Notes under the pieces: model-generated
The model's input: the letters and a program-made list of their open reading frames with translations, nothing else
What the model was told of the DNA's origin: nothing
The model's database searches: none
In this document: piece by piece, positions 17,342 to 18,737 of the stretch
Position numbering within the stretch: position 1 is the first letter of the stretch
How the letters are laid out: every line of letters begins with the position of its first letter
Assembly (NCBI RefSeq): GCF_024502345.1
Contig: NZ_JALDNN010000001.1
Reading direction: 5' to 3' (one strand)
Source: Escherichia coli
GTDB lineage: Bacteria; Pseudomonadota; Gammaproteobacteria; Enterobacterales; Enterobacteriaceae
DNA length: 64,000 bases
Program-made: the position numbers and the translations under genes

Positions 17342-17632
17342 TTATTTAGAGTCTTTAAACAAGGGTAGCCCCTGTGAACGCCGCCATTCTTTGACAATTT
17401 TCAGGATGTTTTCAGGTTCATCATCTCCCTTCTTTGCAGGATAGTAGATAAGATCGCTCATCAACGGATGTTGTGTAATTCTGGTAAGATGTTCTTCTAG
17501 ATCATCCCAATATTTGTCAAGCTCTTCCCCTTTTAATTGAGCGTTATCCCCGGTTGGATTTGTAAACTCGCCAAGCAACTCAATGAATTCCCGCTCTGTG
17601 TAATCTTCTATTTTATCTTTAAAATTATACAT
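17342..17632 (-). CDS. Orphan Im7/Im9-family DNase immunity protein (96 aa), duplicate copy B
   Basis: DYTEREF ... HPLMSDLIYYP ... GDD ... KEWRRSQG motifs parallel Im9; identical to 18040..18330. Confidence 0.8.
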   Translation of the reverse strand: MYNFKDKIEDYTEREFIELLGEFTNPTGDNAQLKGEELDKYWDDLEEHLTRITQHPLMSDLIYYPAKKGDDEPENILKIVKEWRRSQGLPLFKDSK

Positions 17633-17872
17633 TTAACTATCTCCTGTAATAAATTTCATCATGCAAATGAGGTGTGCCCTCCTTAAATTATCAATATCGT
17701 AAATTCCGCCACTATATTCAATCGCAACACGATGATCCATGTGGAATTTTTTAACGATTTCTTTAGTGCCATAATGCCAACCTTCAAGTGGTGCTTTTGC
17801 GATTAATCCTTGTTTTATACGTGTTTGATTACCGCTTGAAAACTGCGCTATCAACTCCGGATACTGACTCAC
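17633..17872 (-). pseudogene. Orphan C-terminal fragment of HNH DNase toxin, duplicate copy B (no ATG; HNH motif degenerate)
   Basis: Homology to parent toxin begins abruptly at LWLEVSQ; first codon is GTG; IHH replaced by MDH and terminal TP..H....H lost by apparent 1-nt frameshift. Confidence 0.6.
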
Positions 17873-18039
17873 CTCCAGCCAAAGGGTATCGGTAAAAGCG
17901 GGAAAATGATAAAATAACCTAATGAGGCTTCAGTATTTTTACCTGTTTTTTAAGAGCAATCACATTATTATTTTATGTCATTAATATCATCGCATTAGCC
18001 AGATGCGATGATGTTCCATATATAGTTTTATTATCTACT

Positions 18040-18330
18040 TTATTTAGAGTCTTTAAACAAGGGTAACCCCTGTGAACGCCGCCATTCTTTGACAATTTTC
18101 AGGATGTTTTCAGGTTCATCATCTCCCTTCTTTGCAGGATAGTAGATAAGATCGCTCATCAACGGATGTTGTGTAATTCTGGTAAGATGTTCTTCTAGAT
18201 CATCCCAATATTTGTCAAGCTCTTCCCCTTTTAATTGAGCGTTATCCCCGGTTGGATTTGTAAACTCGCCAAGCAACTCAATGAATTCCCGCTCTGTGTA
18301 ATCTTCTATTTTATCTTTAAAATTATACAT
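18040..18330 (-). CDS. Orphan Im7/Im9-family DNase immunity protein (96 aa), duplicate copy A
   Basis: Identical to 17342..17632; Im9-like motifs. Confidence 0.8.
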   Translation of the reverse strand: MYNFKDKIEDYTEREFIELLGEFTNPTGDNAQLKGEELDKYWDDLEEHLTRITQHPLMSDLIYYPAKKGDDEPENILKIVKEWRRSQGLPLFKDSK

Positions 18331-18570
18331 TTAACTATCTCCTGTAATAAATTTCATCATGCAAATGAGGTGTGCCCTCCTTAAATTATCAATATCGTAA
18401 ATTCCGCCACTATATTCAATCGCAACACGATGATCCATGTGGAATTTTTTAACGATTTCTTTAGTGCCATAATGCCAACCTTCAAGTGGTGCTTTTGCGA
18501 TTAATCCTTGTTTTATACGTGTTTGATTACCGCTTGAAAACTGCGCTATCAACTCCGGATACTGACTCAC
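18331..18570 (-). pseudogene. Orphan C-terminal fragment of HNH DNase toxin, duplicate copy A
   Basis: Identical to 17633..17872. Confidence 0.6.
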
Positions 18571-18737
18571 CTCCAGCCAAAGGGTATCGGTAAAAGCGGG
18601 AAAATGATAAAATAACCTAATGAGGCTTCAGTATTTTTACCTGTTTTTTAAGAGCAATCACATTATTATTTTATGTCATTAATATCATCGCATTAGCCAG
18701 ATGCGATGATGTTCCATATATAGTTTTATTATCTACT

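Follow-up and report, generated by a model that had tools for sequence, protein, structure and literature searches.

Organization of the Island

The window, that is, the whole stretch of 64,000 nucleotides from the Escherichia coli contig NZ_JALDNN010000001.1 (assembly GCF_024502345.1), contains a 698-bp tandem repeat at positions 17342-18737, in which a fragment of a toxin gene and the immunity gene behind it occur twice. The gene order in this part of the chromosome is lpd-aceF-aceE-pdhR, followed by an insert of 5.2 kb and then by aroP. The repeat is within this insert, between pdhR (15430-16194) and aroP (21384-22757); the aroP-pdhR intergenic region is 540 bp in relatives without the insert. 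From its position, its base composition, the architecture of its toxin, the family of its immunity proteins, and its identity to the UTI89 locus, the insert is identified as PAIusp, a small island known from many E. coli, which consists of usp and the imu (or orfU) immunity genes. The initial annotation had not recognised it as such. In the PAIusp literature, the aroP-pdhR region is stated to be the insertion site in all usp-positive strains. The GC content is 39.6% in the island and 36.0% in the array of modules described below, as compared with 51.3% in the window. Every gene of the insert is encoded on the minus strand.

The island has its active toxin gene in usp (uropathogenic-specific protein; 19025-20806), which encodes 593 residues and is annotated as tssD. 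Pfam matched T6SS_HCP (residues 28-139), Pyocin_S (309-450), and Col-Pyo_DNase (460-591), in that order, and NCBIfam matched both TssD and a type VI secretion system (T6SS) DNase effector. Usp is 97% identical to Usp of strain UTI89. Alignment with colicin E9 and pyocin AP41 placed the HNH residues (HH...N...H...H) in the last 36 residues of the full-length protein, where the equivalents of H102, H103, N118, H127, and H131 of colicin E9 are all present. An identification of this protein as Hcp-ET1 was rejected, since reviews give the UTI89 protein as Hcp-ET3-4, for which Usp/PAIusp is the older name. No T6SS gene cluster was found within the window.

Downstream of usp are four immunity genes of the colicin/pyocin type, two of them encoding identical proteins. 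The immunity proteins are 100%, 99%, and 98.7% identical to the three of UTI89. The UTI89 locus, also named Hcp-ET3-4, is described in a review (PMC6730261) as being followed by "three duplications" of its immunity gene. OrfU1 has been shown to bind and inhibit Usp (PMC3685522), and Imu3 has been reported to protect DNA by binding it, not through tight binding of the toxin (PMC3917654).

The imu1-type gene (18738-19022, 94 residues) comes immediately after usp. Its product matches the first UTI89 immunity protein at 100% identity and belongs to the same Colicin_Pyocin family as the 96-residue imu2-type protein. This gene is followed by two modules of one kind, each formed by a 3' fragment of usp, "tail79", and an imu2-type gene. 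In the upstream copy (unit U2), tail79 occupies 18331-18570 and the imu2-type gene 18040-18330. In the downstream copy (unit U1), tail79 occupies 17633-17872 and the imu2-type gene 17342-17632; the product of the latter is 99% identical to the second UTI89 immunity protein. The array ends with a 3' fragment of a second type, "tail62" (16987-17175, 62 residues), and an imu3-type gene (16650-16886, 78 residues). The 96-residue protein matched Colicin_Pyocin in Pfam with an E value of 7e-28, and its closest solved relatives are the pyocin AP41 immunity protein and Im7.

The imu3-type gene is shortened by a 7-bp deletion at about position 16914. It encodes 96 residues in relatives; in the window, a TAAAATA tandem repeat (16887-16933) is one copy shorter. 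Over the part that they have in common, the 78-residue product and the FDAARGOS_943 protein are 100% identical. The same product was found on 21 public contigs, and none of 5,426 complete E. coli genomes matched the segment at 100% (the best match was 99.4%, with the 7-bp gap).

Structure of the Orphan Modules

The initial annotation described an orphan module of a toxin tail and an immunity gene. This description holds: the tails carry no delivery domain, each has its own immunity gene behind it, the 79-residue open reading frame (ORF) corresponds to positions 54-112 only of the Col-Pyo_DNase model, and the 96-residue ORF is a full Colicin_Pyocin immunity protein. The "DNase tail" is, however, not an active toxin. 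Both tails lack the first 53 positions of the domain. In tail79, Asp takes the place of H102, and the reading frame shifts where 1 nt has been deleted behind the DIDNLR codons, with loss of the equivalents of H127 and H131. In tail62, which has a weak NCBIfam match to the C-terminus of a T6SS DNase effector, the equivalent of H102 is Tyr, and a stop codon directly follows N118. With these residues lost, the tails are dead relics that cannot be nucleases, not toxins.

At the DNA level, the tails share 85% identity with the 3' end of usp, and the homology begins abruptly at the LWLEVSQ codons. The 3' ends of both kinds of tail contain AGGAG, the ribosome-binding site for the immunity gene that follows, which may explain why this part of the tail was retained.

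The modules share several stretches of high identity. Over their final 75 nt, the imu1-type and imu2-type genes agree at 74 of 75 positions, whereas the bodies of these two genes are 67% identical; across the modules, the immunity bodies are 63-69% identical. The first 58 nt of the tails are identical, and the spacers between modules are 94-100% identical. The non-coding spacer between the two copies (17873-18039, 167 nt, type s1) matches the spacer after the imu1-type gene (18571-18737) at 167 of 167 positions and the spacer after the downstream copy at 157 of 167. The spacers had been noted as matching on inspection, as is the case for the first of these pairs. Every spacer contains a 10-bp hairpin about 27 nt past the stop codon and a weak promoter-like site, TTTAAA-16-GATAAT, at its start. 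The fold of the s1 spacer as a whole was not significant (z = -0.97).

As a separate observation, the segments composed of a spacer and an immunity 3' end (17176-17416, 17873-18114, and 18571-18812) are better conserved (94-100%) than the immunity bodies. This pattern suggests that the linkers undergo concerted evolution.

Geometry of the Tandem Repeat

The segments 17342-18039 and 18040-18737 are identical at 697 of 698 positions. Identity of this extent cannot arise by chance. The two ORF pairs, one of 96 residues (17342-17632 and 18040-18330) and one of 79 residues (17633-17872 and 18331-18570), had been described as identical proteins at a constant 698-bp offset, and their translations agree with this. 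The two tail79 copies are also identical in DNA (240 of 240 positions). The duplication had further been called perfect; this is true of the proteins and of both spacers, but the DNA differs by one base, G at 17368 and A at 18066. The mismatch is in the codon of Leu89 of the 96-residue ORF (CTA and TTA) and is synonymous.

The match with a period of 698 extends beyond the two units. The segment 17307-18114 corresponds to 18005-18812 over 808 bp with 1 mismatch, and near-identity starts at 17239. The whole span of this period is 17307-18812, or 2.16 copies. The duplicated pair is the middle of an array of four units, spaced by 692-698 bp, and the outer units are 61-89% identical to the inner ones. 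Tandem Repeats Finder did not report the array, because the longest period that it considers is 500.

Footprint of the Probable Crossover

The position of the single mismatch is informative. The marker base reads G at 17368, A at 18066, and A at 18764 in the imu1-type gene, and it is the sole difference between the 3' ends of imu1 and imu2. In seven single-copy loci (L001, L002, L004, L005, L006, L009, and L013), imu2 has G in 7/7, and imu1 has A in all six that possess an imu1 gene (L009 lacks it). Because the marker reads G, A, A in the window and these are the states of imu2 and imu1 in single-copy loci, the upstream copy is a hybrid, composed of the body of imu2 and the 3' end of imu1 type. 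The downstream copy has the ancestral G, as does the single copy of each relative examined. The hybrid junction reads as the imu2 body followed by GGGGTTACCC, and the other imu2 end reads as the imu2 body followed by GGGGCTACCC. The hybrid nature of the upstream copy explains the single-base difference, and no later mutation has to be assumed.

This footprint would confine the crossover to an interval of 48 bp, 18067-18114 (equivalent to 17369-17416), in the conserved 3' end of the immunity gene. The interval is bounded by the G/A marker on one side and by the first divergence between the imu1 and imu2 bodies (18115/18813) on the other. The units are thus head to tail with boundaries in pre-existing homology, and the recombinant junction mixes both parental markers.

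Taken together, it is likely that one orphan module, tail79 with the imu2-type gene, was duplicated in tandem by a very recent unequal crossover within PAIusp. In such an event, two chromosomes, most likely sisters, would pair with the 3' end of imu1 on the near-identical 3' end of imu2, one unit out of register. Unequal homologous exchange would then be resolved within 18067-18114. The product would be the 698-bp tandem repeat, with an upstream copy having the imu2 body and the imu1-type 3' end. The sole functional outcome would be a second intact immunity gene with its ribosome-binding site.

Transcription of the array, including the orphan modules, probably starts together with usp at its promoter (divergent aroP P3). 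We only infer this co-transcription, because a promoter and terminator scan found no terminator-like site between the modules on the coding strand, and its counts of promoter-like and other sites were not above those in shuffled sequence. The extra copy of imu2 might be neutral or mildly useful.

Comparison with Related Loci

The 698-bp unit was found in 1,052 of the 5,426 complete genomes, always at the aroP-pdhR site. The closest relatives of the window have a single copy. With one unit removed, the window differs from the draft L028 (GCA_024502245.1) by 4 substitutions, a 7-bp indel, and a 1-bp indel in 15.4 kb, and from L013, a metagenome contig, by 1 substitution in 4.6 kb. Relatives that are about 5 changes per 15 kb away have three immunity genes and one imu2 module. 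Judged from these distances, the duplication is very recent. The initial annotation had proposed a very recent duplication or active unequal crossing-over, and the crossover footprint, together with single-copy relatives that are near-identical elsewhere, supports this proposal.

Three of the substitutions relative to L028 are clustered within 230 bp of usp (19757, 19852, and 19985). They correspond to Lys350 in the window and Asn in L028, Ala319 and Thr, and one synonymous change. Outside this cluster (19757-19985), the remaining 15 kb are almost without differences.

The imu2-to-tail79 junction was found in one piece at an identity of at least 99% in none of the 5,426 complete genomes. This query returned matches in two pieces only, apart from AREA_502, a chimeric ST131-like array that gave the best match in one piece (98.7%). 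The 23 longest public contigs with the tail79 allele of the window are all single-copy (23/23). The number of places per genome was rejected as a measure of copy number: its median of 4 reflects ST131 arrays of four different modules, in which the second orphan module is tail62 with a different immunity gene. An apparent second imu2 gene at +698 in L024 was also rejected, being an ST131-type array cut by the contig end.

Strain ATCC 25922 (L003) shows how these modules can be rearranged. Its usp differs in the C-terminal region, and an imu3-type gene comes after it. At 4976-5212, it carries an intact orphan tail of 78 residues with the full HNH motif, which is 96% identical to the C-terminus of Usp in the window, and an imu1-type gene is behind it (4680-4973). 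The same module is therefore fused to the toxin in the window and orphan in ATCC 25922. This arrangement is direct evidence that cassettes of a toxin end and an immunity gene become displaced and swapped in PAIusp.

Two further loci showed mobile elements at the end of the array. In L021 (GCA_046116235.1, CP164846.1), genes for a 286-residue beta-lactamase and a DDE transposase (5543-8291) directly follow the last imu gene, at the position where pdhR is found in the other loci examined. In L005 (NZ_CP160108.1), IS903B (3380-4470) is inserted in the last immunity gene of a four-module PAIusp array.

Real Event or Assembly Artefact

The hybrid junction, in which the imu2 body is joined to the A allele, also occurs in L007 and L014, two metagenome scaffolds from the same lineage that are independent of each other (related metagenome samples include SAMEA4968129 and SAMEA4968185). 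The 7-bp deletion allele is found in both, identity on the usp side is 99.97%, and each of them breaks into a gap after the junction. The contigs stop 55 nt inside the conserved 3' end (k = 55), beyond the shared stretch of 48 nt. This argues for a real event. Drafts that match the window over 9-11 kb with an identity of 99.96% or more behave in a similar manner: their contigs stop within the array, as in GCA_025580485.2 and GCA_001484085.1, and one of them stops 59 nt into the conserved 3' end. A branch would arise at this end only in the presence of a second A-allele copy, which again argues for a real duplication. That single-copy relatives were assembled without a break points in the same direction. 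L007, L010, and L014 do not give the copy number, since one and two copies yield the same assembly graph.

The alternative, which the initial annotation had already raised as a caveat and which stays valid, is that the genome has a single module and that the repeat loop was traversed twice during assembly. Such a false expansion is unlikely. It fits the fact that the two copies differ only at a base marking a graph branch, and the shared stretches of 48, 58, and 61 nt are of the kind that merges nodes at small k; in addition, the near-identical relatives are single-copy. On the other hand, tandem repeats are usually collapsed, not expanded, by assemblers. The array is mid-way in a contiguous stretch of at least 64 kb, and a repeat check of the window found no other long repeat pointing to sloppy assembly. 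The hybrid junction was recovered independently from two metagenome samples at a k of 55, larger than the shared 48 nt, and the breaks in related drafts coincide exactly with the branch expected from a second copy of the A allele. The event would have taken place in the cell rather than in the assembler.

Several observations weigh against a duplication by unequal crossover. A mis-traversal of the de Bruijn graph through the shared 48-nt stretch would yield the same sequence, including the footprint, and a public contig of 1752 bp (L026) shows that short-read assemblers can trace cyclic paths through the array. L026 was considered as a carrier of the junction but was set aside, as it reads like a graph cycle through an ST131-type array. 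The exact pattern of the imu2-to-tail79 junction was found neither in the JGI metagenome contigs nor in the GTDB representative genomes (0 in both), and a look-up of DNA and protein found no record of the exact Usp allele of the window in the public collection. In L007 (3691-4880) and L010 (1-1190), the imu1-type 3' end and the s1 spacer are joined to tail62 and the 78-residue gene, with 11 mismatches to the arrangement in the window. These scaffolds may represent a different recombinant or a gene conversion, not the duplication; or their joining may be a shared assembly mis-join at the 58-nt repeat.

Origin and Possible Role of the Second Copy

If the repeat is real, it could still have arisen otherwise than by duplication in place. 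Gene conversion might have homogenised an ST131-like array of four modules, or a second module might have been imported. Four-module arrays do exist (EC958 and L002), and the chimeric arrays AREA_502 and L004 show that conversion or recombination between modules takes place. Such an origin is nevertheless barely credible. Relatives only about 5 changes per 15 kb away have one imu2 module, the second orphan module of ST131 is of another kind, and a conversion would need to span exactly one unit and yet leave the imu1-type marker.

A different question is whether a real duplication has been selected. A higher dose of the imu2-type protein might guard against strains that deliver a matching variant of Usp, and gene amplification would then be at an early stage in the window. 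The immunity gene that was duplicated is an intact one, with a ribosome-binding site of its own. Orphan immunity genes are generally believed to guard against effectors of non-kin (review PMC6730261), and all three immunity duplicates of UTI89 have been reported to neutralise the toxin, according to reviews that cite Ma et al. (2017, Virulence 8:1189). This explanation is considered unlikely, given that there are two copies only, that the variant was found in none of the 5,426 complete genomes and in no sampled relative, and that no Usp variant cognate to imu2 was identified in this analysis. A neutral, transient duplication explains everything equally well and is the simplest reading of the two imu2 copies.

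A broader version of this idea may be formulated. The near-invariant linker, which runs from the immunity 3' end through the 167-nt spacer into the first 58 nt of the tail, might be kept as a scaffold for recombination; PAIusp would then be a cassette array in which the number and order of imu genes change rapidly, and the window would show imu2 in the course of adaptive amplification, at a time of attack by a Usp variant that matches it. We regard this as quite improbable.

The number of imu genes in PAIusp is not fixed even within one clone, and PCR subtyping of PAIusp and short-read assemblies of the island can mislead because of this variation. Many genomes carry annotated "DNase tails"; these are dead relics, and toxin counts should leave them out. 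Were selection for the duplication to be demonstrated, the dosage of an immunity gene would provide a natural case of evolution under bacterial antagonism; nothing in the data requires this. The repeat is best described as a copy-number variant that looks real and is very recent, in a toxin-immunity island that is well known and prone to recombination, with no new system or mechanism.

Comparison with Known Systems

The window has the same site, genes, and low GC content as PAIusp (usp with orfU1-3/imu1-3; with Ia, Ib, IIa, and IIb as subtypes), and its proteins are 97-100% identical to those of UTI89. The published subtypes are based on the number and order of the immunity genes. Variation in this respect has long been described for PAIusp; the system is already known, and the mechanism is ordinary. 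The published types have two or three orfU genes of different kinds, whereas the window has four, with one kind present twice as identical tandem copies, and its last gene is truncated by the 7-bp deletion. Hcp-ET3-4/ETI of UTI89 is the Usp of the window under another name, with Hcp, pyocin S, and colicin DNase domains. The "duplications" of UTI89 are paralogues that are 57-64% identical to one another, whereas the pair in the window is identical.

The C-terminus of the toxin and the immunity proteins are homologous to those of colicin E7/E9-Im7/Im9 and pyocins S2/AP41 (E = 1e-32 and 2e-19, against solved structures). The HNH residues and the DLIYYP motif of the immunity protein are conserved between these pairs and the window. 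Where colicins have receptor-binding and translocation domains, Usp has an N-terminal Hcp domain; according to reviews, its delivery would depend on the T6SS. The colicin and pyocin pairs have one immunity gene, whereas the window has several.

Orphan cdiA-CT/cdiI and rhs-CT/rhsI modules were reportedly described by Poole and co-workers in 2011 and by Koskiniemi and co-workers in 2014. These arrays of the CDI and Rhs systems likewise consist of a toxin 3' fragment and an immunity gene downstream of the full-length toxin, and recombination is possible through a stretch in which the fragments are homologous to the main gene. The CDI and Rhs systems differ from PAIusp in their toxin and delivery families, and the fragments in the window are frameshifted or interrupted by a stop codon. 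Because of this, recombination of the tails with usp would give no working toxin. The auxiliary clusters of Vibrio cholerae and the AID clusters of Bacteroidales also contain extra immunity genes without a working cognate toxin, which are thought to protect against non-kin. Orphan immunity arrays of T6SS usually arise by successive acquisition or through mobile elements, whereas the event in the window would be a simple local duplication.

Neighboring Features

Within aceF (11693-12604), three diverged direct repeats of about 300 nt each correspond to its three lipoyl domains, a known feature. Between aceE and pdhR, on the strand opposite to both, Rfam matched the tp2 small RNA family at 15272-15385 (plus strand; 104 bits). 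This was the only Rfam match, and none was found within PAIusp.

On the other side of the island, between aroP and ampE, genes for a sugar symporter of the GPH family and a glycoside hydrolase of the GH43 family are present at 22916-25272. The segment 21384-33600, which includes this insert, was covered by at least 80% in only 53 of the 5,426 complete genomes. PapRG-04-4, the one top match to this segment that was examined (99.1%), has no PAIusp. The presence of PAIusp together with the symporter/GH43 insert may be unusual among complete genomes.

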